A DNA stretch of 64,000 nt, from contig CM120640.1 in the NCBI GenBank assembly GCA_051362555.1, positions 50,260,788 to 50,324,787 on the forward strand, given 5' to 3'. The notes under the pieces were generated by a model, which was not told the DNA's origin, ran no database searches, and saw nothing but the letters and a program-made list of their open reading frames with translations. Each line of letters starts with the position of its first letter. Within the stretch, counting starts at the first letter, position 1. Shown here in pieces: positions 887 to 56,890 of the stretch. This DNA comes from Lingula anatina. Lineage: Eukaryota; Animalia; Brachiopoda. Position numbers and translations under genes: made by a program.

Positions 887-2258
887 TCTCATTGCCGTTG
901 CTCGTGTATACCGGGCATGCATGAGACACATTGAATACAGCCGTTAACCACCAACGAGCACATACTTGCAGCCTTGTTTTGACACACCTGCCTTACCTGT
1001 TGCTATAAACCTTACTTAGTTATCGTCATTTATGAGTACATAACCGATTATTAAGAAACTGGTCAATACCTGATGCATTAACTGACAGAAATTTACTGGA
1101 TAAAACCCTATTGGCGGCGATAAGCTTGTGTAAATTTTGTTTGTTGAAACGTTATCCATTTCGATTTAAGTGGCACATAAATATTTGTTTTAAAACAAAC
1201 CATTAGTGGAGTCGATTGTGTCGACCAGATCTATTAGTAACATTGATTGTAAACAACTGCAACTTGTTGTTACGAAAATGTGCCTTAACATATTCATTTA
1301 AATTGGCAGAGAGCGACATTATGGCCAAACTAAGTACCTGCTGAGTCATTCCATCATTACAGTTTTGGAAATCGGTCTAAAAGTGCATTAATTTAGGTGT
1401 GCTTCAGGTGCTTTAATTGCCAATTTGGTTGACATGTGTTTTGTTCTGAAAAATATATTAACTACACGTTTATTGTAATTTTTTTCTTTGGGGGGGGGGG
1501 GTGTCAATCCACACATAATGAACAAATGGCATTACTGAACAAATCTTTAATGGTGCGTTTTTGTAAACCAGGATATGGATGGAGAGGCAAGAGGAACATC
1601 GCTCTCCTTTTAAATACGTATCTTTTATTAACTTATTTTTACAAACAAGATATTACGTGTGTCCTTAAGCGCAGATGCAAGATTTGCCCCAAGTCCTCAT
1701 TCAAAACAAGATGGGAGGACTGAGCCCCTACCACCTTTCTTAATGTTCTGCTTCCGCCAATGTCGACTGTAACGAAAGTGGCTATTAATCAATAACGAAC
1801 TGGGATGTTGTTAATGAGATGGTCAACAGTTTCATTTTCTCTACTGGCTTGCCAAAGAATGAAAAGATTGATGTTTTAAAATGGACTTTTTGACTGTAAA
1901 CCTCTCTGTAAATGGAAACGGACTAAATGGTCAATTAACGGGCAATGTGTTTGTCGTGTGTCTTCATTATATATGTAGTGTACAATGAAAATTCCAGTTT
2001 AAAATCAATATCTCAAACACAATTCTTTCAGACTTAGTCTGTGTACTTCCCGTTTTAGATGGAGACGGGAACAGTTAACCAGCATCAACAAAGTTCTTGT
2101 CAAGTGCACACAATGCAAAGTGCGCTTATTATCGTTAGTGACTACATAGGTTTCAACGTGAGCCCAAAGTAGTCATTTGCTGGCTGTCTCTTCGTCACGA
2201 ACGCTTTTGTATATACGCGTGCATTAACTGAGGCAAAGTCCGTCCAGAGGGCTAGGTT

Positions 2259-3944
2259 ATGGATATGGAAGAAAGGGTCGTCATAAATGTTGGTGGTACC
2301 CGTCACGACGTTCGCCAAGAAACACTGCGAAGAATTCCAGGGACAAAGCTTGCATCGCTTACTAAGCGAACTTTTCACTCTGATGATGAAGTTAAAGAAT
2401 ACTATTTCGATCGAAATTCTGCATACTTTGAAGTTGTCCTTGATTGTCTTCGCACTGGACAGCTTCATATTCCACGTAATTTGTGTGTTAAAAGGGTCCA
2501 GCAAGAGCTGGATTTTTGGAAAATTGATCGTAAAGAAGTAGGCTCGTGTTGTCTCCATATATTTACTGACGCAGAGGAACAAGAGACGGAAGCACTGGAG
2601 ATGTCTAAAGAATTTGGACTCATCCCGATGAACGATGACCAGATGACAGAAAAACTAATTGGTGTGTCCAGTCGTCGTATCCGATTGTGGACTTTTCTTA
2701 GCGATCCGAATTCTTCCAAGGCAGCTCTGGTAAATTTTGTGGCTCATCAAATAATATTAGCTAGACTTGTAAGAAGTTAAAACCAAAAAAATTAAAGCAA
2801 ATATTTTATCAAAAGGGAACACATATCAATTATTTTCATTCGGGATATAAATTTCAATGCATGAAAAAGTAAGTCGTCATTTTATTAGTGTTGCATTTCA
2901 TTTGAATCACCTGTGAAGATATACGTAAGACATATTCTGGTCCCTTTTCATTAGGAGGTTGTGACTGTCGACGACGGGTTCTAATATTTTAAACTTAAGT
3001 CGTACAATATTAGAGACTGATTCAAACTACTTTGAACATACCTCAATCATATTTTCTTTCATTTAAAAAGCATCTAGTTGATCTTTGTCTCACAGTACCT
3101 TTAATACATTGTGTTTCAGGCATGGCTATACTTCTACCTAATTTTGGTCGTGTTGACCATAATTTGTACAGCCTTAGGAACTGATAACAATCTACGAATA
3201 GGCAAATACTTAGGAAACATATCGCTGGACGAGGAAGCTTTGGCAGCAGAATTTGACATCAGTTTGAAAAGATTACAACTAACAATAAGCAGCAAACCAC
3301 AGTGGATGCATATAATTGACAATGTTGCTTTACTTTTCTTTTCCACCGAACTTTTCATTCGTTTTGTGGTTAGTCCGATGAAAGGGCGATTTTTCAAAGA
3401 CCCGATGAATATTATTGACATTATCTGGATCATTTTGAATTTGACTATAATAGTCACCACACCATTCCAGGAAAGCAACCTAGATCTTTTTATTTTTGCA
3501 GTCATTGTAGACGGAATCGTGAGTGTTCTGCGTGTTTTTAAGATTTTAAGAGTCGCCTCTTGCTGGCTTGGCCTCAGAGTGCTTTTGCTGACCTTAAAGG
3601 CTAGTATTAAAGAATTGTTATTAATGATTGTATTTCTTGGAATGGGTTTGGTTATCTTTGGGACATTTATATATTATTCAGAGCTGGATGAAATGGAAGG
3701 CCAATTTCCAAACATACTAGTTGGCTATTGGTGGGCCGTGGTTACTATGACGACGGTAGGCTATGGGGACATCCATCCCACCGGAGCAGTGGGTAGAATC
3801 GTTGGGGCGATATGCATTATAATCGGCATGGTTATCACAAGTTTACCAATATCTATCATCGGGAATAATTTTAGCAAATATCTTTCTTTTTCAAAAACTG
3901 TAAAAGTCCTAAGAAAGAAAAATGATCGAAACCATAAAAAATAA
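2259..3944 (+). CDS. Voltage-gated K+ channel alpha subunit, Shaw/Kv3-like but divergent; exons 2259-2729 and 3120-3944
   Basis: T1 domain (RVVINVGG...YYFDRN...) with the HX5CX20CC Zn motif of non-Shaker Kv channels. Six hydrophobic segments and the pore WWAVVTMTTVGYGD. A phase-0 GT-AG intron (2730-3119) joins the two ORFs. Confidence 0.92.
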
Positions 3945-4001: not shown

Positions 4002-4158
4002 TATAGGACCATGCAAGGATCTTAAAACGGTGAAGGATGACGAATTTCCATTGCGCTAACCATTTCGTGATAATGATATAGGGCTGTTATCACGAAATGG
4101 TTAGCGCAATGGAAATTCGTCATCCTTCACCGTTTTAAGATCCTTGCATGGTCCTATA
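4002..4158. repeat. Perfect inverted repeat with 72-bp arms and a 13-bp loop (hairpin or MITE-like)
   Basis: 4002-4073 (tataggacc...cgtgataa) is the exact reverse complement of 4087-4158. Both ends are TATA. Confidence 0.95.
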
Positions 4159-5695
4159 TATATAAGGAACTCATAAACGTGTGAATTTTTTCTTTCGGAA
4201 AATTGACCCCTTTCAGAGTCTCAGCTTTGTGTGTTTGTTTTTTAAGCAGAAAACGTAGCAAAACTAGGAAAATCAGTGGCTGCGAGAAAAGAACAAATGA
4301 GATGATAATGATTTAATAACATTCACAGATTGGTAGATTGTGTCTTGATGTGTATTTATAACGTTTAGTTCGTGAGGCAGACCACAGGCACAGGATGGAC
4401 AAACGCATAGCAGCACCAGTAGGCCTACATTGTGTGTTTAAATAAATGTAGTAGGTTACACAGACTTTACGTATTAAAAAACGTGTACTACGTTACGCAA
4501 GCTTTGCGTTGGATTGTATCAAACAAAACTCAGCTACATATCTAAAGAATGTATTTCATTTGAATTGGTGATACTGTCTTAGAAATGTCAGTTAGAACTT
4601 AGTTCTCTGTAAGCGTCTTTCACAAATTTCTAATGAGAAAAGAAAAATAAAAAGTTTTTTCCTCAGAATTTTTTGTTTCAACTCGCTTTGGCTTTATTAG
4701 CCTGGGTTTACTGTGGGGCTTTTTTCTTTTTCGCTACAAAAGCAACTGACATGGGCGTTACTAAGCAGCAAATCTTAACCAAATATGTTGACCTCCAGAG
4801 AAACCTAGGCTTATGGCCTTACTTGGCTTATTTGTAAAATAATTTGCGATAATTGAACACAGACTCATCTTGCTCTTCTTTGATGGGACGTCTATTTTCA
4901 CACGTCCTTCAACGATAAAACAAAAGGAAAAATATCAAAACCGTGAGACCGTCCTGTAATAATGGACCTGGGTCAATTTGGTGTATTTTGTGCAAGCTTC
5001 AGAAGTGTATTTCATAATTTTTATTTTCTACTTATGTATTTCATAATGAAAAGCAAGATTGCTGCCCTATGAATCCGCCTGGTAGAATACATTTGCTTCA
5101 CTACTTTACATATTTGAAATATTCATCAAACGTAAAATAGTACAAGAGGGCCTGTGAAAAAAAATGGGTCGATTGTGCCAAAATCCACACTCCGAATTTC
5201 GTTCAGCACCTCTAAAGCAATGCAATTTGTCAAATGTTTACGAGGCGAGTCAAGTGACTATACTTCGGTCGAATGTTCTTCATTAAGGTTCGGTTGACAT
5301 TTGATCAAACTAAACTTTGTCTGTGATAATTTCTATGGCTGCATTAATGGTATGCTGATATCAAAGTTAAACTTCTACTGGACTGTCCATATATTTTAGA
5401 CGCCATTAACGAGCTAACTGTTCATCTTGCTCTGGTCTACCGATTTTTGTACTATAACTAATATTTCCCAAACTAGAAAGAAAACAATATGAATGTAACA
5501 TTTCTAAAAGGACAAAAAGGTATGTTTTACAGTCTGCTATTCTCCCAACATCAACTATGCCATAACAATTATGTCTTCCTTCTGATATTTTTTTATTCAA
5601 AACTTGACAAAACGTGATTTTTGTAAAATTTACCAAATTTCTGATAAATTTTAGGGGAACAGATTTCAGGGTACAGTTCTTGTAAAATGGAATTC

Positions 5696-5918
5696 TATGG
5701 AATCCCAGGAGGGCCAAGCGGAAAAAAAAATTAAAAAAAAAAAAAATTTGAAAAAAAAATTTGAAAAAAAAAATTTTGAAAAAAAAATTTGAAAAAAAAA
5801 AATTAAAAAAAAATTGAAAAAAAAATTTTTTTTGAAAAAAAAATTGCGAAATTTGCGAGATCGCGTGTAATCCCGCGAGATCGCGCGTAATCCCGCGTGG
5901 TCGCGCGAAATCCCGAGA
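5696..5918 (+). repeat. Left TIR core: 25-bp unique tip, A-tract array, then about 3 CpG-rich 20-bp repeats (cgcgagatcgcgYgtaatcc)
   Basis: Reverse complement of about 11995-12201. Confidence 0.9.
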
Positions 5919-11011: not shown

Positions 11012-11909
11012 TACTTGTAGCCCAAAGAAAAGCTTTGATAATAACACTGGAGATGTGTGCCTCAACATAAAAGGTGAATTATACAGGTTAAATCCACCTA
11101 ATTCAATTTTATGATTTATATTTTATACTTTCTTAAATCAACTTCTGTTTCATGCTTTCATAAAATAACTATTATTTGAATTGACAAACTGAAGCCCAAG
11201 AATTAAAAATATTTCAAGTAATATCATATATGAAACTATTTCAATTCTTATTGTATTTTAACACAAATAACTTGGTAGATCCATGTTGAAAAAAGACAAA
11301 CACTGAATTTGCTCACCAAATTTGAAGTCCTGATCCATCGGCAAGTGCCCACAGTTGACACAATGTCTGATGGTTCTAATTTTTCGGTATCCTGGACATC
11401 GACATTGCCTTTTGTTACAAGCACCGACGACACTCTACAAACGTAAATTACAAATGAAAAGCAATACTTTCAACATTCCTATCCTTAACGGGAACTGTAC
11501 ACGTGTGGTTTAATAATTGTTTCGAGGAAGTCTAATGAAAAATACTGTAAATTTATGTAAATGTATGTAAAATAAGTTAAATACCCAATGAAGACGTTTG
11601 CATAACCAGTCAGTGTCACTGTGTCAGGAAAGGCGACATATTTATTTAACCGGTGTTGCTATCTTCTTTTATTGCCCCTAGTACGTTCTAATACTAGTAA
11701 TAGTAAAGAAATAAGACTAAGAGGACACTCGTCCTTGATTCACTAATAATACTATACGTCACACTATCATCTGCATAAAGAATAAAGAGAAAACAACTTA
11801 CGTGCAATATATTATCACATCCGCATGATTTACAAATGGGAATGTGAGCCTGTTGTTCATAGTCCGTGCTATGTTGGCATTTTAAACACATCGTGGCTTC
11901 TTCCGCCAT
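7930..11909 (-). pseudogene. Multi-exon (about 12) IS3-family/integrase-core DDE transposase, decayed
   Basis: Exons at about 11909-11802, 11434-11317, 10777-10687, 10235-10160, 9849-9752, 9635-9542, 9216-9117, (degraded ~9040-8945), 8913-8774, (degraded ~8673-8615), 8584-8383 and 8168-7930. They encode GITWSESTLKRRL, DHEGRKLRIRRALNRRVF, GPNWIWSVDGNDKF..IHGCFDTFSRK, RSDPGTEN, GPSPLNQ and WNNHKIR. Lesions: the donor after 9542 reads AT, there are in-frame stops, and the expected catalytic RIE is not found. Confidence 0.8.
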
Positions 11910-11994
11910 GTTTCTATTCTCGCAATTTCTCGTGAGATATCGTGATTTTTTTTCTCTTTTTCTTGATTTCCTTTTGAAATAAAATTTGCTCGGT

Positions 11995-12201
11995 ATCGCG
12001 GGATTTCACGTGGCCACGCAGGATTACGCGCGATCTCGCGGGATTACACGCGATCTCGCAAATTTCGCAATTTTTTTTTTCAAAAAAATTTTTTTTTCAA
12101 ATTTTTTTTTCAATTTTTTTTTTTTTCAAAAAATTTTTTTTTTTCAAAAAAATATTTTTTTTTCAATTTTTTTTTTCGCTTGGCCCTCCTGGGATTCCAT
12201 A
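11995..12201 (-). repeat. Right TIR core of the IS3EU-like element
   Basis: Mirror of 5696-5918, with a shorter T-tract array. Confidence 0.9.
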
Positions 12202-12293
12202 GAATTCACTTTTATAACAAAAACACTTGGCTCTATAATATTCAATATATATAATAAAACTCTAAAAATCGGATCTTCCAGCTGAAAAATGTC

Positions 12294-15200
12294 TTAGATA
12301 GTGCTATCTTTATAACGACAATGTCTTCCATTGCGCTTTTCTTTTGAATAGTCACGTAAAGTATTCAGTTTAATTCTCGGAAGCTCTATGGGCCCCAAAT
12401 TGTTTGTTTTAGACATATCCTGCCAGAGTAGACAATTTCTGTCTATATGCGCCACTACATTGGGTCCTATTGTTGGCCTTTGGTCTGATCGCAGGCTCTC
12501 TGACGAATACGTAGATTCACTGTGGTGCTCCACCTTAGAGTCGCTAAAATAAAAATGATAACAAATGTTATATTTGGTACTATAGAGAAAGAAACTAATA
12601 TAAAATATAACAGGTGAATTCGTCTAAAAAATAAAGGTAAAAATACACGTAATCAAATATTATATTGTCCAATACTTTATCGGTGGTAAATTTTTGTTCC
12701 AGTGTCAACAATTTCGGCAGTTGCAGGAGGGGCATACTATCATTGCATTAGCACGCTACATGGATGACACCACAAATCTGCCATATTTTTAATTAGCGAC
12801 TTACCATTTCTTGCCCCTTTTAGAGCAGTTCCACTTGACAGCCACAATCACAATAACGACAGCAAAGACCACTAAAAACCCTACTGAAGCCAACGGTGTC
12901 CTGAAACGCGAGAGGAACGCGATTACAGGGCTCTTGCCCTCGTGGCCGTCTGTTGCTCCCTTCACTTGAACAGTGGTGCTCATTGTGACTTCTGCAGGCT
13001 TCATGCTGTTTCGCCCCTGTTCTTTTTTCGTCGTAGCTGACAAAGGATTCCTTTTAGTAACCTTAAAGTGTAGGTCTACAGTTGAGTCGGGAGAGTGCGG
13101 CTGTTCAATTTTAGTTGGCTCATTGGTTTTAAGTTGGGTTGTTTGGGTTGTTGGTGCTGTGTTATAAACTGCTGTAACCTCTTGTGCTTTCGTGTTCATC
13201 GTGCTTGAACTATATTTTTTGTTTTTACCCCTGGTCGTGTGGGCTTTTATATTCGTGGTGGTGGATTGTAGTGATTTGGGGGAAATTGTTCTCAAATATG
13301 TCGAAAGTCTCGAATTCATTCTATCTGTTGTAGGCCTATAGTAAGATGTGAAAGCTTGCTTTGCAGTTGAAACAGCCGCCGTATGTAAAGGCTTTTGGGG
13401 TGCTTTTGTTGACAGTTTTGGCCACGCTGTTGTTGCTAGCCTTAATTGGGTGGACGAAGGAAAATGCCTCGCCCGTGTGGATATCACTGGCATTGTGACG
13501 AGTTCTTCCGACGGCGTAGTCGGTTTCATAGATTTTTCCGAAGCTTCAAGTGTCACTGACGCAGACATTACAGTGGATGATGTCACTGTTGTTGACGGAT
13601 CACTTGTTTGAGCAATACTGTAATTATCCTCAACCCCTAGTGTTAAACGTGTGGTAGGTTCCCTCACTGCTGCAGTCGTCGACTCAGTTGATCCAGACAT
13701 ATGCTCTGTCTGATTAGTCCTAAAAGATTTTGTTTCTATAATTCTAGCCGTCGTATTTCTAATGGTCGTTCTGGCTGTTGTGAAACTTAATTTAGTTGAA
13801 TTAATGTTCATATTCGAGATAGTTTTTGTGTCTTTGGTCGTTTTTTCCGTTGTATCGGGTGAGATCTCTGTGGTTGACTTTAGTTTAGTTAAGTTTGCCT
13901 TTGTTAAAACTGGTAAGGCAAATGTTGTAGGCCTACCATTTGGTGCGGTTGTTGCTATTTTTGATGATGATGATGTTGTTAGTGCCGGCAATGGCTTGGA
14001 AAAAGGCAAGTACGATGTCTGCATCGGTCTCTGTGGGACTGTATCGAGGTCTTGCGACAGCGTAGTTTGTTCTACAAATTTTGTTGAGATTTTTAATGAC
14101 ATAGTCGGTAGTAGTGTAATTGTTGATGTCTCTGTTTTTGATGGATCAGATGTTTTTGCAGAAGTGAAGATGACTTCATTCCCCATATGTGAACGCGTGG
14201 TAGATTCTTGTAATACCGTGGGCGTTGTCTCAGTGGGATTTGAAATGTGTTCTGGTGCTGTTGTTTTTGATGCTTTAAGCTCCGACGTCGATTTTTCGTC
14301 GATCGTTTTCGAAGTTGTATAATCTAGCACCATTTCAGTAGGTTTGAGTTCTGATGTGGTAAATATTGCTGTTACCTTGTCTCTACTTGCTGGGCTCGTT
14401 GTAGTAGAGCCTGTTTCGTTGCTAACCATCAACGAAGTTGACGTTTCAGCCACTGCACTTATTTCTGGTTGTGCTGTAGAATTCAATTCTACATTTGTGG
14501 TTTTTATGGATTGAGGTAATTCTGTGGAAGACCCTATTTGTAAGTTTTGCGTGTCTGTTGCAGTAGTTTGTTCAGCTTCAGTACTTGTAGCTGTACATGG
14601 TTGTGTTGGCGTATTTGCGGCTTCTGTTGTTGTTTCCAAGGTAGTGGTCATTGGTACGCAATGTTCCCCAGATTCCACGTACCCAGGCTTGCAGGTGAGC
14701 TTTCCTTCTGCAGTACACACATGAAGAAGAGAGGTTGGTTTACACCTACAGCTGGGTCCGTATAGACCTGGATCACAGCTCACGTTAAATTGCACCACCA
14801 ATCTAAACAAATATAGCTCTTGGTTTATAACACTCTAAAACTCCTTGACTGTCAGTACTTAAATTACCAGAAATGTGTAGGCAAATTTAATAGTCGTTAT
14901 GAATTTAAAAAAAAAAAAAAAAAACAGATATGACAATATATTTTGATTAATTATTTCTGACAGTAATTGCAATTATAGGCTATTTAAACTGTCTGTCATA
15001 TGCACAAGGCTCACCTTGTTTGTATTGTTAATCCTTCTAGCGTCACGTTCACAGCATGCCCAGTGGTCAATTTTAAATCATAATCGGAGCTTTCGAATCT
15101 ATCCACAAGGCTATCACTATCTCCAATCGATGATTTTTTATGGGATACCCAAACTTCAACCCGATATCCGCCCTGTAACAGCAATTACTTTACCATCAAG

Positions 15201-16065
15201 ATGATAGGAACACGAATGTACTGATGGTTATAAATATTCATTCATTGACTATATTGAAAAGTGCTCTGCTTTCTACGCACATTTTAAAAAATCTACTCAG
15301 CGATTGAAAAAAATTCAAAATGAAAGCATTACCGTCCATTTAATGAATGGCACCAGAATAGGGTTTGGTTTCATATTGTCATTATCAAGATAATGTCCAA
15401 AATTCACGGTATTTCCCCTGTATACCATGGACGTGGTGGTCTTTGAGCACACCACATCTCCCGCACATCTGAATAGCAATGATATGAACATGAGAATGGT
15501 GATAATTTTAACAACAACAAAAAATCTATTTCACGCATAGGTCCGAGATACTACAGATACTGTAATGAATTTGATGTACTTTGAGAAATTAAATGCGCAC
15601 AAGATACAAAAGTTGAATCAAACCTGGTGTAAGCCATAGTATTCCAAAAGTACCATTCTTAAAACTAATTATACATTCAAACAGATTGCAATGACACACT
15701 TTGATGAAACAATGAAATGTCCCTTACCCACTGAAAACGTTAATCTTTATTTTAAATGCATGCGAACAGTCCTCCTTAAACAAACTTTTGTCACATGGTT
15801 GCCAATTTTTCCTCACCCCTTTCTCGTTCTCATACTCTATCAGTTTTACCGACAGAGTCCCGGATCCTGTTATAACTGATAATGAAACTTCTGGCATCCA
15901 GAGTATCTGGAAATAAGCGACTTTTACACAATTAAAAGGAAAAAACACTATCTGCCCCCATGACAAAGGCCCTGGATTGAAAACCGTGATATACTGACTT
16001 TTGCCACAGTTGATCCTTCTACTGATGGCCTTATTTGTCTGCGTTATGGGGAAATATGGGATAAC

Positions 16066-16155
<90 letters not shown>

Positions 16156-16534
16156 GGACAAGCAAGGAGAAAGATTACAAAATGAATAATCAATGTTAAA
16201 TTTGTTTCCTCTTTTTATTGCCTAAAAATATTGTTAGGTCATCATATACATGTATAACTGCGAAATGAATTGAATAAGAAGAGAAGACAAGTTTCATTGT
16301 TAGGATTTTCAGTTAGTTCCAAGGTCCTGTCTGAATCGCTGACTAGAAATTTTATAGACTGACATATAAGTGGACTACCCAGAAACGAGATGCGCTTTTC
16401 TGATATCAGGCTTTATTTTGTTGGAAAGATCAATTATCATTTAAATAACATACCTCAATCCAAATGACAAGCAGGAAAGTTTTCCTCATCAGATTGGTAA
16501 TTTTCCAGAATTGAGTAGCTTTCTTCGTCGTCAT
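12294..16534 (-). CDS. Notch-ligand-like type I membrane protein: signal peptide, MNNL/C2 domain, DSL-like domain, ~570-aa Ser/Thr mucin stalk, TM helix, cytoplasmic tail
   Basis: Exons 16534 (or 16489)-16454, 15906-15728, 15468-15333, ~15172-15015, 14802-12805 and 12543-12294 all have GT-AG ends with compatible phases. Motifs: SGTLSVKLIEYENEKG..C.....C...FKI, NPILVPFIKWTGGYRVEVWVSH..LVDR, VSCDPGLYGPSCRCKP...CTAEGKLTCKPGY...C. TM is LASVGFLVVFAVVIVIVAV and the protein ends in DSTI. Confidence 0.82.
16065..16155. repeat. Self-complementary compound microsatellite (AAT)n(ATT)n
   Basis: A run of aat repeats switches directly to att repeats in intron 1 of the DSL-mucin gene. Confidence 0.95.
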
Positions 16535-16938
16535 TAAAAACCAGGATGTAAACAGCACGAATGAGCTGCAATGACAATTGCTTTATGTTAATCTTAGTAT
16601 TTGTTTGAATTATCCATGCGACAATGACTGAGTGATGACCGCCATCTGTCTTGGAAAGGAATGGCAGAGACATGTTAATTTTCGAAAGCTATAAAAACTA
16701 ATTGATTTATAGAATCTCTGTTATAGGCCCCGGGCGACCTTGCATGTCGCTGAACAGAGACGGCAGTAATTAAAGTTTAAAACGGCACGCTGCTATCTGC
16801 TAATATTGGCCAACAACAAGTAATATGCTAATACTCGGCTTCTGTAGCCTTGATCCCATTGACCATGGACCATATATCTTGTTACACCGGTTACAGCTAT
16901 TCTCTGCCAGAGGCCTGTTAGTTGCTAACGTGTTACCC

Positions 16939-17096
16939 CACTCCCATACCTAGATCGATCTAGCAGGATTGACAGGAAAAATTTTCGGTATATGGATGAT
17001 AATAAAGGGTTACAATAACCTTAAGCTGAATGTAATTTAGCGAGAAAACCCTCGGAGATGGGTCAATTCTGCTAGATTGATCTTGGAATGGGAATG
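16939..17096. mobile_element. Small MITE-like element with imperfect 35-bp inverted repeats
   Basis: cactcccatacctagatcgatctagcaggattgac (16939-16973) versus the reverse complement of 17062-17096 shows 5 mismatches in 35. Confidence 0.6.
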
Positions 17097-17329
17097 GTGT
17101 CTACTTGTGCAAAAATCTTCGCCAAACGAAAAGAAATGTGCACAGCTAGTGAATAGCCAGTGAAATAAATGTAAATATCTAGTAAAACAGATTTTGTCCA
17201 TGGCCCTGGTGATGGGTGAGCTAAATCATCGTTTTGACAAATGTCAATAGCAAACGTGGATTTTTAGTTTGTATCTTATCTCAAAAGTCGCGAGCAACAA
17301 GAAGCTCTTGGGTCTTCTACATAAAAAAA

Positions 17330-24100: not shown

Positions 24101-27100
24101 CAAAGAGGCGACACTTACGGTTCAAGAAAGTGAGAGCAAGACCCAGTGTAAAGAGTATCCTGGAACAGAGCAAGTTTAGTGATTACCAAAATCAACTTTA
24201 CAAAAGCATATGCAGCAAAAGAAAATTCACACAATAAAATAATATAAACCAAAATAAATACACTACACTAATGGCAAGTGCAATTTTTGGGCAAAGTAAT
24301 ATAATATCTATAACAAGTAAAGGAATTCAAATTACAACATATAAAAGGGGTACCCTTTAAATTCATAATCAGTATGACACATGAAATAATTATGAAGTGC
24401 AACATAACATAACACTTTTGAACTTACTTTTCCAAAAGGTTTGGTAGCCTAGGCAATTGCTGAATCCGTCTCCAGTACCAGATCATTATACCCAACACAA
24501 CTGGGAACACACAGGTTTTCATGATAAACCAGACTTGAGTGAAACCTCCGGTTTGGTGAATTACCTAACAAAAAATATATCACAGGCTATTAGATGTTTA
24601 ATACATATACCATAAGCCTGATCACTGGAAGTACCTTTATTTGAATTATATCGTGTTATTATGATGAAACTTCCCAACCCAGCATTGCTGGGCTCTTCAA
24701 TCTCTCAATGTAAACAAAATGATCACAACTTTCAAAAACAGTATTGAAAGTGTGTGTAAATAAATTAATGACCTACTCTAATTATATTATTACAAACTAG
24801 GATTTGTTAGAATGTCGGTTTATTTCAGACTGTTGGAATTTTTATTTATATGAAGTTAACATTTCTAACAATAATAATAATAACAAAAAATGCTAATATA
24901 TGTTTACAAATTGATCTTACATGCATCCAAATATCTTCCACCTTTCCAATGCCCCAGTTCTTTGCAGAATTGTTATGAACTGGTATGCGGATGTTCACCA
25001 AATAGTCTTCATAATATACACTGCCCAGCTCAAAGAAGGCAGTCATATTGCAGTCATAGTAATCATTTTCTTTCTTCTGAAAAAAAGAAAAGAAAATTTG
25101 AGAAAATCAATAAGGCAAAAAAATGACAGAAATAAGCAAACCTGCTATTCTTCATCTAAAAATAAATTATGCATATGTAGATTTTAATCTTGCCTAGCCA
25201 GATTTTAATTTGGCCTCAGCCATATTGAAACTGTAATATGGGTCGATGTAATATCAGCCTTGGTCAAATTAAAATCTGAATGAACTTTAATTTGTTCTAG
25301 GTCGATTTAAAATCTGACTTGATTGCAATCTTGCTTACGACACACACACGTCAAATTATTTTATAAAAAATCACACAGTGAATGTTTACATCAATTGTTG
25401 AGGATTAAAATTCAAATTTCTCTATTCTAAATACTTTTAAAATTGCTAAATTGATAAGGAAGTTATGTTACATTACCTGTGTATAGGCAGTACCTACCTC
25501 ACCAAGGTGGCAATCAAGTTTTCTCTGCTCATTGGATCTGGCTATTTCAATCCAATCACTATTTCCACTTCTGGCTGCTATTCTGGAATCCATATCTATC
25601 ACAGCATTTTCCACTGAAAAAAATTATTAAGTAAAAGCTTAATATAAGAAAAAGCTGTTCTGGCAATATTAAGAAAAATAATTTGAAATTCATTTTACAC
25701 ATCCATCACTTTACAAAGGGACTACTTCAAGAACAGTTTTTTACAAGTTACCATGGCAAAAAATAATATAATAAATACTAACCCATGGGATTGTTCTCTT
25801 TGTATTTGATCTCAAAGCCCAACACAGCAATCATATATTGAAACCATTTATTCATTTTTAATTCTTTTCCTTCTCTTGGGATTGGAAATTGAAAAGCAAA
25901 CACAATCTGGTTGGCCCCAATCTCATCTTCTTCAATCTTCTGGTCTTCAAAGGTGCTGACTGAAGTGCAGCTTCCCGATCCCCGAGGCCAAAATAACTTG
26001 TGTTTGTGGTTATGGCCGCCATGTTTGTGCTCATCTATACACTTGGTGGCAAGTAACTGCTGCACATGATGGGGTGACGGTGCTAAATGGAGAAAAAATG
26101 AATTTATCAGGAAATGATGGTAAAATCAATAGTCAGCAAAAAATGAAAATGTCAGACATTTTTGGATGCTCAATGTCAAACATATTATATTCCTAATCCA
26201 CTCACCATATATTCCCCAAAAGCAGTTTCTTTATTGGCAGGCACCCAATCAATTCATCATGATCTTTTTTTTTTCACTTACACTGTATACCGAACAGTTC
26301 TTTACCTCAATGCCATGTAAAACTATACATTATTTAATCACATAATATGTTGCAATAAGACAAAAAGCCTGTGTGCTACCAGTATTGATGTCAAAGATAT
26401 TTTCAAAAAGATCTATTCCTGCTTCAGCCACCTATGTAGATTGCATGCTTACGCCAAATTGACATCAGAAATTGGCAACATTTCAATCAATGACTTCAGG
26501 ATAAAAAAATAACTAAGGTACAACATCATGATTTATATGGTGCAGTTTTATTCAGCAGACGATTTGCCCATAGAAGTAGACACATTTTTATTCAACATAA
26601 ATTAAAAAAATGATTTAGTTAACAACCACTTAAGAAGAATCAGTACATTCACCATAACTTACATTCTATTATTCAAACAAACCAGTAATTGTATAACGTG
26701 TATTACATTAAGTTAAGTAAATAAAACAAAATGAACATACTGATTCATTTCACTAAAACAGCAGATTTGTCAAGTTGAATTTAACTAATTTTTACTGAAA
26801 GTGAACCAGTACAGTCATATACTTTGGGGTTTCCTTTTCCCTCAAAACTCTCTCAGTTAAGAGCCTCAATCACCTTGATGCTAACTCTAAAATTACCTTC
26901 CCTAACAACAAAAGATCTTGGATAAGAAAGGGCTTCACATCTATGAGTGTTTGATAAACCTGGAGGCAACATTAAATTGGGAACAATATTGAATGCTATT
27001 ATTTAGAGCAGGATCAGGTGACTAGATCAAAGGATGCACAATATAGTGCATATTAAACCTGAAAATATACAGTGGGGTTGGTTGTTTTATATGAGGCCAT

Positions 27101-38900: not shown

Positions 38901-41900
38901 CAGCTGGGGTAGTCTTTGCCTTTATTTGTCCTTCAATTCTTACTGCAGTGATTGCAGTGAGGTTAAGAGTCAGTGGCAGACCAATACAGGTGGGCACTTG
39001 GTAGGTAGCATCAGCATTGACAAAAGAGCGAACGTAATCTACTGGCATTCCCTGTTCACTCTGGATTTGCTGCAGATCAAAGTAATCTGGAATTTTTGGT
39101 ACTTATTTATTATTATTATTTTTTTAAATTGTAAAATAAATATGAAATCTTGTTTCAAATGTATTATTTCAGTGTATACTTAAACTTCATAGATTAATCA
39201 TTTTTAAAATGTCAAATAAAGTGGTATATTCCCCATAATCTTATCTAATATTGCTAATGTATCAAGTGTCAAGTTTAGTTTTCTAATATAATATGCTTAT
39301 AATAATTAACAGCTGAAGCAAAGTAGTGGATCTATAGTCTTTAAGTTGTTAATTCTTCATTTATAATAGATGTCAATGTACTTCTTACCAGTCAGCAACT
39401 GTCTTACAGACAATGGGTCCAGTGTGTAGTAGGCTACCTCTCTCTCATTGACTCTGTAGTACACTTGACCATTCAGTCTCTCAGACTGGCAACCTTGAAG
39501 TTTCAACTGATAAAACATAAACAAAACTGGAAACATTAAAAAGCTGGTTATGATTAAATACATTTTTATGTTCACATATGATGTCCCTAATTATGTGTAG
39601 TTTTTCCCGTGAAAGTTTAATATAACATAATATGAAAAAAAGTTAATTACTTCAATCTGTTACACAGAATTTGTTCACTTTAAGTCTGCCTATATGACTG
39701 ATATCATGTACCCTGAAAAGCATCATTATATCACCCAGTTTGAGTTTTTTTTTAATGGTACAATTAATAATTTAAATTTTACATGTTCCTTGATTCTTTC
39801 TTGTTCCTGAACAATGTTCTGATTGACTGGCCCCTCCCTCTGTTGGTAATGTCTGGCACCTCTGGCTGAGTGTCTAGGGCTCTGGAGAGCATCCTTGAAT
39901 GTCTTCTTAATGATGTTGAAAGCAGTTTGTTTTGGGGCAAAGATTGCTTCCAAAATGCTCTGCAGTCCCTCAGCTCTGAAGCCAACCTAAAGGAAAACGT
40001 TTCAAACATCGCATAGTGGAAGCTCTATTGTAATAGTAATACAATGTCCATTCAGTTTAGGGAAAATCCACCAAATTTAATGAAAAGCTTAAGCTAGTTC
40101 TAGACAAAACATGTATAAAGTGCCTACTTACCTCAAATAGGTTTGTGGAGAATCCAAACATAGCAAGGTCATATCTGGCAGCCAGTGAACGTGGGAGGAG
40201 AGAGTATGGACTGTTTACTTTGTGGATTCCCTGAGCAAAACCAATCTTCAGATCATTATAGTATTTGCTATAGTGCATGGCCTTGGAGTACTGGAAGCCT
40301 GGGTTGTATGGCCTACAGAAACGGAGAGCAAACTGCGCACGTCTGGCCAGAGTCCTGTAGCAGGGATGTGAGGCATTGGCCACAGTAATAAGGTATGAGT
40401 AAACGTAGGAGCCGACTTCCAAGTCTTGTTCTCTCCTAAGAGACTGAGCAACAAGTTGAAGAGCTGTGCGGCTTGGGCTTTGTCCTATGAAGATCCTGAA
40501 GGCAGCAAGCCTGAGCTCTGTTGGTTCTTCACCATCAAAGTACACTGTCAGACAAACGTCATTGATCTGAAGAGAAATGTAAAACACGTTTATGTATTTT
40601 TTTGTTAGAATATTTCTGTTTGAGCAATTGAAAACAAAACTATTGACTGATGCCCAGTAAATTATATCTTTTACCATATCATGTATTTCCTGTCTGTAAT
40701 TTAAAAATAGTTGATCCATTCCTGTTAAAGTCTAAATTGTGAAATAAAAATCTTTATTATCACTTCAGAGCTATCAGTTTTTGTTTATATCTCTCCAAAT
40801 ATTTTGCCAATGGTGTCTTACCCTGTTTGGAATAGTTCCTACAAGATTTCTCAAAGCATTTACAGCCACCACACGCAGTTCCTGTGGCTGTTGCTTATCC
40901 TGAATCACCTTCTTCAACCAGGGAAAACTTCCTTCAATTCCTGCATTGCCAAAAGCCTTCAAAACAAGGATCTTCTCATCTCTATTCTGACCCTGGTTAT
41001 ACAAAGCTTGAAGTTGCTGGACATACTTATTAAGCCTGGTTTCAGTGCAGCCTTGGTCCCTGGCATATGGTCTTTGGGATGGGTATGGGTGCCAGGTACA
41101 GCTGGCATTTATCAGGGCCCCAGCTGACAGGAGGCAGGAACGGCGCACTATGGGGCTGTATGATGCAGGGAGATTCTGGTAAAGTGCCTGCAAGGGTAGG
41201 CCAAACATCACATCTTACTAACTACTAATTTTAATGGATGAATATAGTGTGAATGCCGAATACTTACTCAGTATACTCAGAAAGGAAATAATATTTCAGC
41301 ATACTTTTTTCACTTAGTAAATTTATACACATTGTATTAAAGGTATAAGTACCAATTTTTCCTAAAAACTGCAATTGCACTTATATAACCATGGCTATGA
41401 AGTAAACTTTACCAGGAGTTGGTCAGCCATGGAGAGGTTTGGCAGTGGACTAAAGGCTAAGCCTGACAAAACTTGAGCAGCTTCACGGTCTGCTAATTGA
41501 CCTCTCTTGATGGCTGTTGCTACCCAATCCACTATAGCTCCATTGCTCACAAGGGGCAACACATCGAACAGTACTTGTCTGCAATAGAAAAAAGTGTCTA
41601 TGTTGTAATTTGACATTTATAACAATTTGACATGTGTTCAAATTTGGCATTTAACTTTCTTTGATGGATTTAAAGCAAACAAAATCATGCCTTGCTCTTT
41701 TTAAATCATATACATTCATACATTTTATTTAAGAATTAAACTTCAAAACAAGCAAATAATTCTGTTTTACTATACTACCTACCTTGCTCTCTGGCTCTGT
41801 TGGTCATTCAGTTGTTGTCTCCATCCTTGCTGTTCATATTCCTGGTGGTGTTGCTGTTTCCTTCCCTGATGCCTTTGTTTCTGCTGCCTCTGGTCTTGCT

Positions 41901-43006
41901 GGCCATAGCTCTGTTGTCCCTGGCCTTGTTGGCCATATCTCTGTTGTCCCTGGCCTTGTTGGCCATATCTCTGTTGTCTCTGGCCCTGCTGAATTGTTGG
42001 TGCTGAGCCTTGCTGGCAGTACTGTTGCCAGATTGCAGCCAGTTGTTCAGTGCTGGACTGACGCAGGGAGCGCAGAAGAGCAGCAATATACTTGGGTGCC
42101 TCTACTGGAACCCCCTGGTCAAGTTCTGCGGTGATTTGGGACAGAAGCTGTCCAACCTGAAATATACATATTTTCTTTCAAAGTCAAGTTGTAAAAACAC
42201 AGTGTTTATCATATTACTATGCAAAATATAGAGTGTACATGTAAAGACATTCAAATTGTGATTTTGGATGAACAAACCTGTTGCTTTTTAGCCACAATTT
42301 CACTGGGTGTGCTTGGTCTTGGCTGCCACTCTGGATTCTTTGCTACTTCTTCTCTCTTGGGGATGATCATTCTTAGGTTTTCCTGGTGGATTTGTGGGTT
42401 TGTGGGTGCAGGGATGGGTGCACCATTCTGGTCGGCTCCTTGAATACGTACGCATTGGCTGAAAAAGTATATGGTTGAAATTCTAGTTGAACCATGATAA
42501 TTCAAAGGGGGAAGATTCTGTGTAAAAAATTTAATCAATAAATCTTTACAGCATGCAATTATCAATGAACATACTTTCACTCCTTCAAAGTAATCCATTT
42601 TCTTCACTTTGGCTACAGTACTTTTTTCCCTTCTTCATCAATTTTAAAAGTAAGAACTTCCATCCATATAAATCTTGATGTTTATAATATAGATGTAATG
42701 AAGTAGCAATATTAGCTTTTCATGTGAACCATGAAAATCTCTTCCACTTTTCACACTCTTTTTCCAGTTTCACAAACATTAAACAATAAATGCCCATCTC
42801 ACTTCTAAACACTTGTTCAAAACTTTTTCAAAAGTACAACCCCATACTTACTTGATGTATGTGACAGCACTGCCTCCCTGCTCAGAGTATGGAGTGAAGA
42901 CATGCTGGCTCTCTACTACTGCTGATTCTATAACATTGCCATTTTGACCTTGACTGGAGATGTTGTAGCGGGCTTGGGTGCCAGATCTCAACAGAGGCTG
43001 TTGCTG

Positions 43007-43066
<60 letters not shown>

Positions 43067-44148
43067 TTATTTGAGTCTAAAATCCATAAAATGTTCTGTG
43101 ACTTTACAAATGTAGACTTAACAAATAAAATACGAAGTTTATAGGATTATCTTAAATTGAAAAGTAATGGTATTATAATGGTATGTTCTGTAAAATTTTT
43201 AATGTTCAATCATAATTTTAACAGTTTTAAGCTCTTTTTTAAATCATTTGTTGACCTAATATTTCTTCTTAGTTCTGATGGTAACTGATTCAATTCGTAT
43301 GGGCCGCATATACAAAAAGATTTTTCTCTAAATGTTTTAAGCCCTGCTTATTGAGGTTTCAACAATAATAATTATAATAATTGGTCCTTAGAAATTTTAG
43401 TGCTATTTGGTGTGTATTGAGATACAAGTTCACAGAGATAATTGGTGCAAGTCCAGTATGTATATCTACAAATTGTAAATAAATCTTTCTTGCACAGATA
43501 TATATCCCTCCTTACACAATTACTTCCTTATGTCCTTTCTTACACAACTACATGAACCTGTTCTCAGCATTCTGTATAAATTCTTCCCTCAAATATGTGT
43601 ACTACTGAAACAATCTCCTTAAAATGTTGCAAAACAGTTCCCATTTAATAATATATATATGAAATGGGTTACCTGATCATAGTTGCAAGAATCACAGCGG
43701 ACAGCTGTATAGATGCTCTGTTGGAAAAGTGGCTGTTCCAGGCAGTTCCTATAGTTGCGCACCTTGGTGACATTGATCACATTCTGGCTAGCATACTGGG
43801 AGTAGGAGTAAGGGTAAGAGCCTACCTGGTACAGAGTCTCACAGTCACCTGATACACCATCCTAGAAAAAATGAATTGGAATCTTATAAAAAAGATGAAT
43901 AAATAAATCATTTTAAAAATAAAGGAATGAAAAATATCTCCAATTTTCACTACACAACACCAAAGTCTACATACATTCCAACAAAAACAGAAATATCATC
44001 TGACAATCACAGATAATAAATAAATAAAAAATAGTAAATAACACATAAGTGCCACATGTTTGTAAAAATCCTCAAATTTCATTATAATTGACCTGCACTC
44101 CACAAGTATATAGTAAAAAGAAATATGGCTTGCCAGTTTCCAAGAAAA

Positions 44149-44191
<43 letters not shown>

Positions 44192-44486
44192 ATATTTTTA
44201 AAAATTGCAATGAGTTTTGTGAAAAAAGTAATTGTCCATATTTTCAAAATTCATCTGCAATTTCAACATTAAAAAAAGAAGAAATTGACAATTTTTAAAT
44301 AAAAGGAAAATGATTTTTGCAAAGTGAGTTTTGGGTGGCAACTGATTATCAGTGTTTACTAAAGTCGCAACATGTACAAGCACAGTTGAGCAAAAATTAT
44401 GCAGACAATCACAGTGTCTTTAAGTAAAAAACAAAATTGCTTTTTAGATTTAAATAATTTTAAAAAGATCTCAGATCCATTTGCTA

Positions 44487-44533
<47 letters not shown>

Positions 44534-46372
44534 TAAGGCAAAAATACCACCACTTTCTTTAACCCAAGAAATAATCTCTAGATTTAATGCATTCTAATAC
44601 ACATTTTAAAAAGCATTTTCTTACCTCCATTACTTTGTAGACATTCCTGTTCTGTGTGCTCTGTCTGCGAATGTTTGTAAACCAAGCATCCCAGCTGGAC
44701 CTGTTGTCCTCATCTAAAGCTCTGTACTGCTGCAAGTTGACTTGGAATACACTCAGGACTCCCTTCTTGATATTCACTGACCAGTATGGGTCATCCTGTT
44801 CAGTCTGCAACTGCTTTACAATGCCATCTTCATAACTGGAAATAATATTACTATGGTTACTGAGGATATCTCCACAGGAAATATTTCTTTGTTTGTTTAT
44901 CAAATCCACTTAAGTTATTAAGTCAAAAAACTAGAAGATGCAATGCCAGCTCCCACAAACTGATTAACTGTTAAAACAATTTTTCAAAAAACCAGCTTAA
45001 AAAATTAAAAAAATACCATCTCTGTCATAAAGATCACTAATTTTATGTACCTTTGCCTTTACACCTCAAACATTAAGACAATTGATCAAATTAATACATC
45101 CACATTCAAAACTTTTGATATGTAAAATATCATTTTAAATAATTGAAATATTCACCTGATTTGGAATGGTCTTTGCAGCTCTTGGCTGATCACTTGCTGC
45201 TGCTCCTGTTGTAGGTCTTGGAAAATCTCCAGTGGCAGTTGCTGGGTTGGTTCACCTTGTACAACCTTCTCATTCAACCTGCGCACCTGAACACCTTCCA
45301 ACTAAAACATAACAAATGCTTTTTTATCAGTTCCATATAACACAATTAATTCATTAGTACTGAAACTGTAAGAGGAAATTAAATCTAAATCAATTGTAAC
45401 ACCACAAGTTTTACAGTCTCATCATATTTTCCCTTCTCCGATTTTCTCATTTGTTTTCCTTTATTTTCTTTTTCTATTATTTTTTAAGTAAGATGAGACA
45501 ACAGGAAGGTTTGTACCTGACATTGGACCTGTGAGGCAGATGTGAACTGCAGTCTGACAGTGGCTCTGATTCTGACTCCACTGTACTGCTGAGATGAGCC
45601 AGGGATTCCTGTCAAAACCTGACCATCATACACATATGCGTATTCACGACCTGAGCGGAAAACTGAAAAGAACAAAATTTACAACATAAATTACAGGAAT
45701 AACTCATTCTTAATCTTCTTTTTTAAAAATTGATATTAGATTATTCAAAGTTTCAGTCTAGCAAAAATTTTACAAAATTATAATAATAAATAGAATAATA
45801 AGAAAAGGTTACAGCCAGCAAGGCTGAAACTTATGCAGGCAATTAACAAAAAAAATTAGAGAAACAGATTGAATGGAGACCATAAAATATGGAAAGTTAT
45901 ACAGAAAAAAAATAAACAGCAACAACATTGACAAGATCAGATACCAGTGATCAGGATAGTATTAAATATATATTTCCTCATCCAGTATTTTAGTAGGTAC
46001 AGTTATTTACTGTTTACAAGTTTACCAGTTAACAGTTGAGACATACATTACTTACCAGATTCTCTTCTTGATGCACCTGTAGGGAAAAAACAGATTGATA
46101 AAGACAATCACAACTTTGAAAATTTTTTCTTCGTGTGTTATAACGTGTTTCTTGTCATTTACTCCTTATAGAAGAAGTAGTATGATATAGTGTTACAACG
46201 TTGTTGAAGCTTGCAGATCTTTTCAGACTATGCTTAATTAATTGACCAAAAAGACAAATCAAGCACTGAATCCTTTCCTACATAATTATCAGGATCAAAT
46301 AAAGTAAAAAGATTTAAATCAGCACTTACTTGCAAAGCAAGCCCCAAGAAGTAACAACAGTGTGAACTTCAT
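31980..46372 (-). CDS. Vtg: Vitellogenin / large lipid transfer protein (LPD_N, DUF1943, VWD), about 29 exons
   Basis: Signal peptide MKFTLLLLLGACFA. Motifs: FRSGREYAYVYDGQVLTGIP, WSVNIKKGVLSVFQV, LKAFGNAG, ELRLAAF, EVGSYVYSYL, and the VWD motif YRGKTCGLCGNMNG. C-terminal QEICFS..PV.QC...C. Confidence 0.93.
41888..41985 (-). repeat. Coding 30-bp tandem repeat x3 (GQ[R/G]QQ[R/S]YGQQ) in a vitellogenin exon
   Basis: The unit ttgYtggccataKctctgttgtcYctggcc occurs three times on the + strand. Confidence 0.9.
43009..43490 (-). mobile_element. L2/CR1-like LINE 3' end with AATAAA and (TTA)n tail in a Vtg intron
   Basis: The minus strand reads like ...LKTFREKSFCICGPYELNQLPSELRRNIRSTNDLKKSLKT, resembling the L2 ORF2 C-terminus (RAF..AP.LWN.LP..IR....FKK.LKT). 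It is followed by aataaa and a (tta)n tail. Confidence 0.65.
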
Positions 46373-49622: not shown

Positions 49623-55733
<6,111 letters not shown>

Positions 55734-56172
55734 TCTTATTTACAATGACAAAATGTTAAAGAGTAAACGTGTGTCAATAAATACAATACGTTACTGAATT
55801 GTACTTTCCGCTCAGAAAAACCAGGCAAGTACGAATGATATTGACTAAATGTTAGAGTATAAGCAGGCAATCGCCGAAACACTGAAATTTGTTGTCATCT
55901 GTTGCCATCTCCATTTTGGACCCCTTTTAGATGGCTTCTGTTATTGGTCCATTCTTTATAGATGGTCCAATCAAAGCTTTCATTTCACTTAGAACCAATA
56001 TGGCGAAGGGTGAAGGTCAAATTAGAGAACTTCTGGATTTTGCCTGATTCATGTACCTACCGTTCGTTTTACGTCTTTTCTCCCTCATGAAGCAATAATG
56101 CGGTGTTTAAGTGTACATTTGTTTAAATAGACCGTCTTCAGTATGTACAGTTACTCATAAGATAACCGAAAG
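55734..56172. promoter_or_regulatory. Bidirectional promoter ARMH1/TOPORS and putative non-coding first exon of TOPORS
   Basis: Three CCAAT/ATTGG boxes (about 55942, 55966, 55994), a YY1-like ATGGCG at about 56000, CpG retention, and a strong donor AAG|GTAAGT at 56172. Confidence 0.6.
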
Positions 56173-56890
56173 GTAAGTCATAATTCAGATTATGTAAATC
56201 TTATTATGAGCAGAAATACGAGGATAACTTTCTCACTATCAGGTTGTGAATCACATGCGATTTCAGCACTGTGACACTATATGGTGGAAACGTACATGTA
56301 TGCCCTCTCAAAATCGATTTCTTATTTATTTAGTACTATTTGACGGATTGTTGTCTGGGTTACAAAGCTTTGCAGTTTAGTTTTGAATTAAAGTTTTTCT
56401 TGAAAGTATGATACTGTACAGTACAATTTAAAACATCACTTCATCAGCTAGTTTTTCATCTATGTTGTAAGTGTATGTTAAAATTGTTATTTTTTTCATA
56501 CTTATGTAGGAAAACAACACTCGTTTGCCACCTTGAACAGTTAATCAATCTGGTTAATGAACCTAAAAATTAACACTTGAATACTATACAAGGACTTGGC
56601 AAAAGCCAGATGTAACTATAACAGTTTAGTGGCACAGCTCTTTATTCCTAAAGCCTGTTTCATCCCAACTCTGTCTGTCTTGACAGAGTTCTCAAATAGA
56701 ACTTGTGTTTCGTTTACATTTTCATGACAGTTACCCTGCATAGCAACTTATAATTATTATATGAATTTTAATTTTTAATATGTGAGAACACAAAATACAT
56801 GTATGTTGTGCCCAATGATAATGTCATTATAAAAAAGGAGAATTTCTTTCACACAGTCAACAGTTTTTTATTCCAGACTGTGGACTGATA

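Follow-up and report, generated by a model that had tools for sequence, protein, structure and literature searches.

We analyzed a 64-kb stretch of the genome of the brachiopod Lingula anatina (GCA_051362555.1, contig CM120640.1, positions 50,260,788 to 50,324,787), hereafter the window, which carries on its minus strand a six-exon gene for a predicted protein of 933 amino acids (aa). The protein appears to cross the membrane once and to present the C2/MNNL-DSL head of a Notch ligand on a long Thr/Ser-rich stalk, with a Delta-like tail in the cytoplasm. Our preferred explanation, to which we assign a probability a little above one half (roughly 0.55), is that it is a Delta-derived paralog that has gone from Notch signalling and that likely serves as a surface recognition or adhesion protein. 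Below, nucleotide positions are those of the window and residue numbers are those of the predicted spliced product.

Gene structure

A preliminary description of the window had proposed six in-phase exons encoding a signal peptide, a C2/MNNL-like domain, a shortened DSL-like domain, a Thr/Ser-rich region within a single 2-kb exon, one transmembrane helix and an intracellular tail. This anatomy holds. All five introns have GT..AG ends, the intron phases close, and the coding length of 2802 nucleotides (nt) corresponds to 933 aa and a stop codon, in one frame without internal stops. The introns are 160-547 nt long, with a GC content of 0.27-0.32 against 0.38-0.43 in the exons. The 1998 nt of exon 5 have no stop in the coding frame, compared with 39 and 42 in the two other frames, and the stop-free frame around this exon extends over 677 codons. 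The parts of the gene, in the order of the protein, are as follows.

16454-16534, minus strand: exon 1 (aa 1-27), with the start codon (16534) and the beginning of the likely signal peptide
15728-15906, minus strand: exon 2 (aa 28-87), end of the signal peptide, first C2/MNNL strands, loop with Cys65 and Cys74
15333-15468, minus strand: exon 3 (aa 88-132), C2 domain with Cys88 and Cys94; matched by tblastn with XP_013409600.1 (E = 4e-7)
15015-15172, minus strand: exon 4 (aa 133-185), C2 domain, carries His143
12805-14802, minus strand: exon 5 (aa 185-851), final strand of C2, DSL, entire stalk and transmembrane helix
14652-14780, minus strand: DSL domain (aa 193-235), six Cys; Pfam DSL E = 0.005
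12912-14651, minus strand: Thr/Ser-rich stalk (aa 236-815), by composition; one Cys
12837-12896, minus strand: transmembrane helix (about aa 821-840), by hydropathy, with basic residues after the helix
12294-12543, minus strand: exon 6 (aa 851-933, then the stop codon), encoding the cytoplasmic tail, 93% identical to the tail of XP_013409600.1
12396-12419, minus strand: Delta-type di-asparagine motif (aa 893-900), by pattern match
12297-12308, minus strand: C-terminal DSTI, a PDZ-binding-type end, by pattern match

The layout is thus a likely signal peptide, a C2/MNNL domain (four Cys in about 150 aa), a DSL domain with six Cys, a stalk of 580 aa, a transmembrane helix and a tail of 93 aa. The signal peptide was assigned by hydropathy (peak 1.88) and position, and the transmembrane helix has a 19-residue hydropathy peak of 3.16. 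A second in-frame ATG lies in exon 1 at 16489.

The protein has one close relative, the RefSeq model XP_013409600.1 (UniProt A0A1S3JGR6), an 893-aa protein of L. anatina that bears the automatic name "mucin-5AC". This model was annotated independently. Its alignment with ours covers both proteins in full and bridges each of the five junctions, the one between the transmembrane helix and the tail exon among them; it also has both of the Met residues of exon 1. At the level of the sequence, we regard the six-exon gene as confirmed. Reading through the donor of intron 5 meets a stop at once, and a tailless form would be possible from the sequence; XP_013409600.1 favours the splice.

RNA-seq support for the junctions, which the preliminary description had called for, did not emerge: in 8 of the 9 runs deposited under the same species label (6-30% of each run was read), no read spanning a splice junction within the gene is listed, and reads in exon 5 are few. 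Run X3 has four reads (two pairs) in exon 5, in the sense orientation by the strand convention of that study's neighbouring gene, and runs X1 and X9 reach a depth of about 0.5-1.2 near exon 6. In one batch of four runs, three gave no reads. One might thus suspect that the six-exon chain is an artefact of prediction or assembly, or a chimera that formed recently from two paralogs and has no function, and the jump in identity to XP_013409600.1 at aa 595 (see below) would fit such an origin. We consider this very improbable, given the canonical splice sites, the intact frame of 933 aa and the six-part layout shared with an independently annotated relative. Moreover, the junction of C2 and DSL spans exons 4 and 5, the DSL, stalk and transmembrane helix lie in one exon, and two read pairs fall on the sense strand of exon 5.

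Identity of the head

The head was tested with XP_013409600.1 or with single exons of the window, and all ten Cys of the head are common to the two proteins. In Pfam, the single exons gave sub-threshold matches to both expected families: MNNL on exon 2 (E = 0.014, below the gathering score) and DSL on the first part of exon 5 (E = 0.005, 17.5 bits for a cut-off of 24.2); exons 3, 4 and 6 had no match. The MNNL domain of XP_013409600.1 scores 25.9 bits, above the Pfam cut-off of 22.5. A phmmer search of this protein against the PDB returned four matches, all of them Notch ligands (DLL4 5mvx, E = 1e-5; Drosophila Delta 7alk, 1e-4; DLL4 4xl1; Jagged1 4cbz), and the window DSL alone matched none of the PDB sequences. 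In a profile search, the sole match below E = 0.001 was Drosophila Delta. In the ESM Atlas, the best match was a cluster of MNNL+DSL proteins (score 0.94, 198 of 256 features), and the ten structure rows were all Delta-like (TM-score 0.63-0.71 over 161-181 residues). Foldseek on a low-confidence model of the head of XP_013409600.1 gave 24 matches with E ≤ 0.001; the 18 listed among them are all Notch-ligand C2-DSL structures, and other C2 domains rank after these.

The six Cys of the DSL domain align with those of 7alk, 5mvx and 4cbz. Their spacing is 8-1-8-7-10 in both Lingula proteins; compared with Delta and Jagged1, the gap between the second and third Cys is two residues shorter and the loop between the third and fourth is three residues shorter. 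Since the ten Cys of the head are all kept, the fold appears to be maintained. On these profile, sequence and model comparisons, the assignment of the head to C2/MNNL and a shortened DSL holds, and the predicted protein would be a member of the DSL-ligand superfamily.

A stalk without EGF repeats

The stalk makes up 62% of the protein. It consists of 34.7% Ser and Thr, or 41% when Pro (6.5%) is included, and its charge is acidic near the head and basic near the membrane. One Cys in 580 aa implies that there is no EGF repeat in it, and a Pfam scan of the stalk found no domain, no EGF and no mucin-associated domain, in agreement with the earlier claim that EGF repeats are missing between the DSL and the membrane. 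Pfam matches to ThsA_Macro and DUF2242 were sub-threshold and were rejected as composition noise. We found no tandem repeats in the stalk and only two repeated 5-mers. There is an old internal duplication, between 13381-13670 and 13900-14210, with 33 of 91 residues identical (36%). From its composition, the stalk is probably O-glycosylated.

This design has parallels among mucin-stalked single-domain receptors, such as fractalkine (CX3CL1), TIM-1 and CD8. These also have one folded head, an O-glycosylated stalk and one transmembrane helix, and the Lingula protein likely works in a similar way. There is no homology between them and the Lingula protein, whose head is the C2-DSL unit of a Notch ligand. 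The RefSeq label points elsewhere. MUC5AC and other gel-forming mucins are secreted proteins with VWD, C8, TIL, CysD and cystine-knot domains and tandem Pro/Thr/Ser repeats. We rejected this identity because ours is a transmembrane protein with no such Pfam matches and no tandem repeats in the stalk.

A different question is whether the protein is mainly a structural membrane mucin, acting in the glycocalyx, in lubrication or as a barrier, with the head as a cap for folding, oligomerisation or lipid anchoring. The share of the Ser/Thr-rich stalk in the protein and the "mucin-5AC" label would favour this, as would the quick divergence of the head, and mucin genes show high expression in the mantle of Lingula (PMC4595640, where the window gene is not named). 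We nevertheless find it unlikely, since the stalk has no tandem repeats, little Pro and no mucin-associated Pfam domain, the head is more conserved than the adjoining stalk, and a bulk mucin would be expected to yield more than the very few reads seen, although this may depend on the tissues sampled.

Comparison with known Notch ligands

The protein shares with canonical Delta (Drosophila Delta, DLL1/4) and with Serrate/Jagged the signal peptide, the C2/MNNL domain, the six-Cys DSL, the single transmembrane helix and a lysine-containing tail with a di-asparagine (NN) motif and a PDZ-type end. It differs from them by its shortened DSL, by the lack of Notch-face residues, EGF repeats, VWC and the IKN/KNxNKK box, and by its 580-aa Ser/Thr stalk. 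Deltas have been defined by a signal peptide, MNLL and DSL domains, nine or more EGF repeats, a transmembrane helix and an intracellular domain (PMC5356439). The window protein has the helix and a tail with a PDZ-binding end and falls short of the nine EGF repeats; it has neither the 16 or more EGF repeats nor the VWC domain of Serrate/Jagged. The category "Delta-like", which is descriptive and non-monophyletic, covers proteins with all Delta domains, fewer than seven EGF repeats and no extra conserved domain (PMC5356439), and our protein falls within it, having zero EGF repeats, no other Pfam domain and a signal peptide deduced as above.

Architectures of this kind exist elsewhere. AmqDelta4 of Amphimedon also has a signal peptide, MNNL, DSL, transmembrane helix and tail without EGF repeats (PMC3482393, PMC10970066), and the bilaterian DSL binding residues are not conserved in it either (PMC3482393). 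A Ser/Thr stalk is not described for AmqDelta4 in the accessible text of PMC3482393, where the words "serine" and "threonine" have 0 occurrences. Its loss of EGF repeats is almost certainly independent of that in Lingula. Among lophotrochozoans, the "Delta-like" proteins of Platynereis, Helobdella and Lottia are likewise lineage-specific Delta derivatives with fewer EGF repeats (PMC5356439), and there are EGF-less DSL proteins in bivalves (PMC8166818). These differ from our protein in that they lose EGF repeats or the ATEV end, or have DSL tandem repeats, and the accessible parts of the two papers do not mention a mucin stalk. The Lingula protein is absent from the three supplements of PMC8166818, out of four, that were searched. 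More generally, domain loss is common among Notch ligands (PMC12166595).

We found no description of a mucin-stalked Delta or DSL protein in the literature searched, which leaves out most subscription journals, and no paper in it that cites XP_013409600.1 or A0A1S3JGR6. The preliminary description did not recognise the architecture as a named family, a statement that needs to be narrowed: EGF-less transmembrane MNNL-DSL proteins (AmqDelta4, PMC3482393) and the "Delta-like" category (PMC5356439) precede it, and the mucin stalk is the part found undescribed. The protein is apparently an undescribed mucin-stalked form of an EGF-less Delta-type protein.

Notch-contact residues

In Jagged1, the DSL face formed by F199, R201, R203, D205 and F207 is used in both trans-activation and cis-inhibition (PMC3415683), and the F207A change abolishes Notch binding (PMC3888931). 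When the alignment with 4cbz is carried over via XP_013409600.1, none of these five residues is identical in the window protein and one is replaced conservatively. F199 corresponds to R204 (Met in XP_013409600.1), R201 to K206, R203 to T208 (Ile in XP_013409600.1) and D205 to Ser/Leu, and F207 falls into a gap within the three-residue loop shortening. This degeneracy of the Notch face is common to the two Lingula proteins. In the C2 domain of DLL4, residues His64, Tyr65 and Thr114 (site 1) contact the O-fucose of EGF12 (PMC7922208); Thr114 corresponds to Gly134 in our protein and to Glu in XP_013409600.1. The contacts made by EGF1-3 of Jagged1 cannot form, since there are no EGF repeats. In addition, a canonical Delta (XP_013393697.1) and a canonical Jagged (XP_013414285.1) exist separately in L. 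anatina (PMC8166818 supplement).

Because most of the residues that grip Notch are missing from the head, the predicted protein has probably been repurposed for recognition or adhesion instead of Notch signalling, and it is likely not a working Notch ligand. The preliminary description had offered three functions. Two of them, a long-reach ligand and a decoy or cis-inhibitor, require Notch binding, against which the degenerate DSL face and the absent EGF contacts speak. The third, a repurposed mucosal or adhesion receptor, would be the best fit.

A Delta-type tail

The protein ends in DSTI, which we take to be a class I PDZ-binding-type end; for comparison, that of Delta is ATEV (PMC5356439). 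The tail also matches the di-asparagine pattern of Delta, [E/D]x2-4NN[L/I] (PMC4447371). In 200,000 shuffles of the tail, the NN motif was matched in 1.4%, a PDZ-type end was present in 3.0%, and the two occurred together in 0.04%, figures that are optimistic because the patterns were picked after the sequence had been seen. There are nine lysines, and a loose phi-x5-K-x2-N pattern matches. A KLNT stretch only resembles the C-box of Drosophila Delta, KQLNTD (PMC11887331). In the head, His143 sits at a position where Deltas have His and where Jagged1 has the Ca2+-binding Asp140 (PMC3888931). Together, the tail motifs and His143 suggest that the gene descends as a whole from a Delta by replacement of the EGF array, as opposed to a head shuffled onto an unrelated mucin. 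The tail motifs, like the mosaic divergence presented below, go beyond the preliminary description.

The same tail, with its lysines, NN motif, C-box-like KLNT and PDZ-type end, and a full C2-DSL head with all 10 Cys kept might instead belong to a protein that still modulates Notch, as a weak cis-inhibitor, a decoy or a long-reach ligand that acts via a C2-DSL surface of altered shape and relies on its tail motifs for endocytosis. Mammalian DLL3 is a cis-inhibitor. It has lost its DSL (PMC12166595). AmqDelta4, which has no EGF repeats, is expressed during development, as are other sponge Deltas that lack the bilaterian residues (PMC3482393). This alternative seems improbable to us, if worth keeping in mind: the face in which no Jagged1 residue is identical and the F207 loop is shortened serves both in cis and in trans (PMC3415683), the EGF1-3 contacts and the IKN/KNxNKK box are missing, and a head that is 53-67% identical between two proteins otherwise 91% identical fits a conserved receptor poorly.

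Several observations weigh against a Delta-derived protein that has left Notch signalling. Sponge Deltas lacking the bilaterian DSL binding residues are still treated as Notch ligands (PMC3482393), hence the loss of these residues is no proof of lost Notch binding. The mapping of His64 and Tyr65 depends on the register, as that of HMMER differs from the strand-pattern register that we prefer, in which Tyr65 is Phe85. Ancestry from Delta over Jagged is based on best hits, His143 and the tail, whose shuffle figures are optimistic as said and which lacks the main Mib1 box (IKN / KNxNKK). Both AlphaFold models of the head of XP_013409600.1 are poor, with mean predicted local distance difference test values of 37.7 (single-sequence, unusable) and 47.2, and the best VIA-align Z, 7.1 (Serrate 7alt, root-mean-square deviation 7.1, 153 aligned), is tied with unrelated C2 domains. 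Finally, the 8 runs show very low expression.

Divergence between the two Lingula proteins

We searched exon 2 against 1.84 billion cluster representatives. There were three matches, one of which is XP_013409600.1; the two others are repetitive proteins and were rejected as spurious. Our protein and XP_013409600.1 are alike in their end-to-end layout, in the 10 Cys of the head and in the DSL spacing, with 564 of 824 aligned residues identical; they differ by large indels in the stalk, where the window protein has about 100 aa more. The identity is very uneven along the protein. It is 59% in exon 1, 52% in exon 2, 53% in C2 and 67% in the DSL, then 44% in the proximal, 67% in the middle and 85% in the distal stalk, and it reaches 94% in the transmembrane helix and 93% in the tail. 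In other words, identity is around 50% over aa 1-383, intermediate from about aa 384 onwards and 91% beyond aa 595, which is the position that fits best if a single change point is assumed (53% before, 91% after). The head has 108 of 192 residues identical (56%), compared with 184 of 207 in aa 600-810 of the stalk (Fisher p = 1e-13), and the divergence of the 5' block is, crudely, 7 times that of the distal part.

The greater divergence of the head, compared with the distal mucin, suggests that the gene is a paralog that has undergone recombination or belongs to an allelic lineage of old age. The head is better conserved than the adjoining stalk (56% vs 44%), which suggests that the whole 5' block is old and argues against a few sites under positive selection. 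Two origins would fit the mosaic: paralogs whose 3' parts were exchanged by gene conversion or recombination (gene duplication is fast in Lingula, PMC4595640), or alleles of a single locus that separated long ago. Within the 64 kb of the window, tblastn with our model and with XP_013409600.1 found no second copy. The head of XP_013409600.1, which has 11 five-mers in common with that of our protein, was compared with proteins of 341-2000 aa and found only itself among 646 candidates. The result hints weakly that the database holds no second member of the family. A homolog search with residues 1-60 of exon 5 gave nothing, a weak negative since XP_013409600.1, with six shared 5-mers, was also missed. 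In the ESM Atlas without ten EGF families we obtained one row (0.76) and no large EGF-less C2-DSL cluster, small clusters being outside this search, and of 74 pattern matches in metagenome contigs none was confirmed.

The RNA-seq runs inform on the variation under this species label. Run X7 differs from the window by four fixed and two nearly fixed differences in about 110 nt of a neighbouring exon, which makes the 91% identity of the 3' block compatible with divergent populations. At 11803-11916, run X1 has 62 reads with at least 99% identity, and X7 and X9 have none and show several fixed differences. This suggests that runs with the same label come from divergent populations or cryptic species.

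A more tentative reading, which we think rather doubtful, is that the head forms the variable end of a recognition receptor that is polymorphic (for self/non-self, gametes or microbes). The window gene and XP_013409600.1 would then be deep alleles, with the 5' block (signal peptide, C2-DSL head and proximal stalk) under balancing selection and the 3' block (distal stalk, transmembrane helix and a tail that signals) recently homogenised. If they are alleles of one locus, the gene would be a candidate recognition gene in Brachiopoda, where we know of none, and the reading as a polymorphic receptor would make it the first DSL-family head so used. If they are paralogs with gene conversion, it would be an ordinary lineage-specific oddity.

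Possible mode of action and implications

As a surface recognition or adhesion protein derived from Delta, the protein could work as follows. O-glycans would stiffen the stalk and raise the head above the glycocalyx. At about 0.25 nm per residue for a mucin stalk, the reach would be of the order of 100 nm. For comparison, EGF repeats measure 10 nm per three (PMC3415683), so nine would give about 30 nm. The head could bind a partner other than Notch: a protein, or a lipid or glycan contacted by the C2 loops. Phospholipids, to which Notch ligands bind by their C2 domains (PMC3888931), are one candidate class of partners, though Asp140 of Jagged1 is not kept. The tail may tie the protein to PDZ scaffolds and permit its ubiquitin-dependent uptake. 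Glycosylation, surface display, partner and trafficking are all deduced here from the sequence.

If this is correct, evolution has taken the C2-DSL head of a Notch ligand off its EGF rod and set it on a mucin stalk, keeping the Delta-type tail. Nature would thereby offer a case in which roles of the C2-DSL unit outside Notch signalling, e.g., in binding lipids or glycans, can be tested. A database entry would also be mislabelled, since the "mucin-5AC" of Lingula would be a Delta derivative. A survey of the Notch pathway discarded unexpected architectures, by its own statement (PMC8166818), and such genes are missed as a result.

Surroundings of the gene

The other genes recognized in the window are the following.

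2256-3944, plus strand: voltage-gated K+ channel (BTB_2, Ion_trans)
25778-26125, minus strand: Wntless (WLS_GOLD)
40057-44909, minus strand: vitellogenin-type lipoprotein; Gln-rich stretch of repeats around 41779-42177
55401-55739, minus strand: DUF5578 protein
56822-61776, plus strand: RING protein, resembling Topors

Another expressed gene lies on the minus strand from 11909 to at least 11318 and begins 385 nt downstream of the stop codon of the stalked-protein gene. Its first two exons are Cys-rich, its intron (11801-11435) was deduced from loose read ends, and it matched no Pfam family above threshold. Between that stop codon and the start of this gene lies one copy of an element of 240 nt that contains long runs of A/T and is likely a small transposon. 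The element occurs at 5677-5918 and 11996-12220, in inverted orientation, and the copies are about 88-95% alike. On the other side, 400 nt upstream of the start codon, an element at 16935-17100 has inverted arms of 39 nt; it is matched by many RNA reads that run into unrelated sequence, as for a dispersed repeat resembling miniature inverted-repeat transposable elements. Intron 1 contains at 16065-16156 a perfect palindrome made of two opposed ATA/TAT microsatellites with 43-nt arms, and a near-perfect palindrome of 157 nt (94%) is found at 4002-4158, just after the potassium-channel gene.

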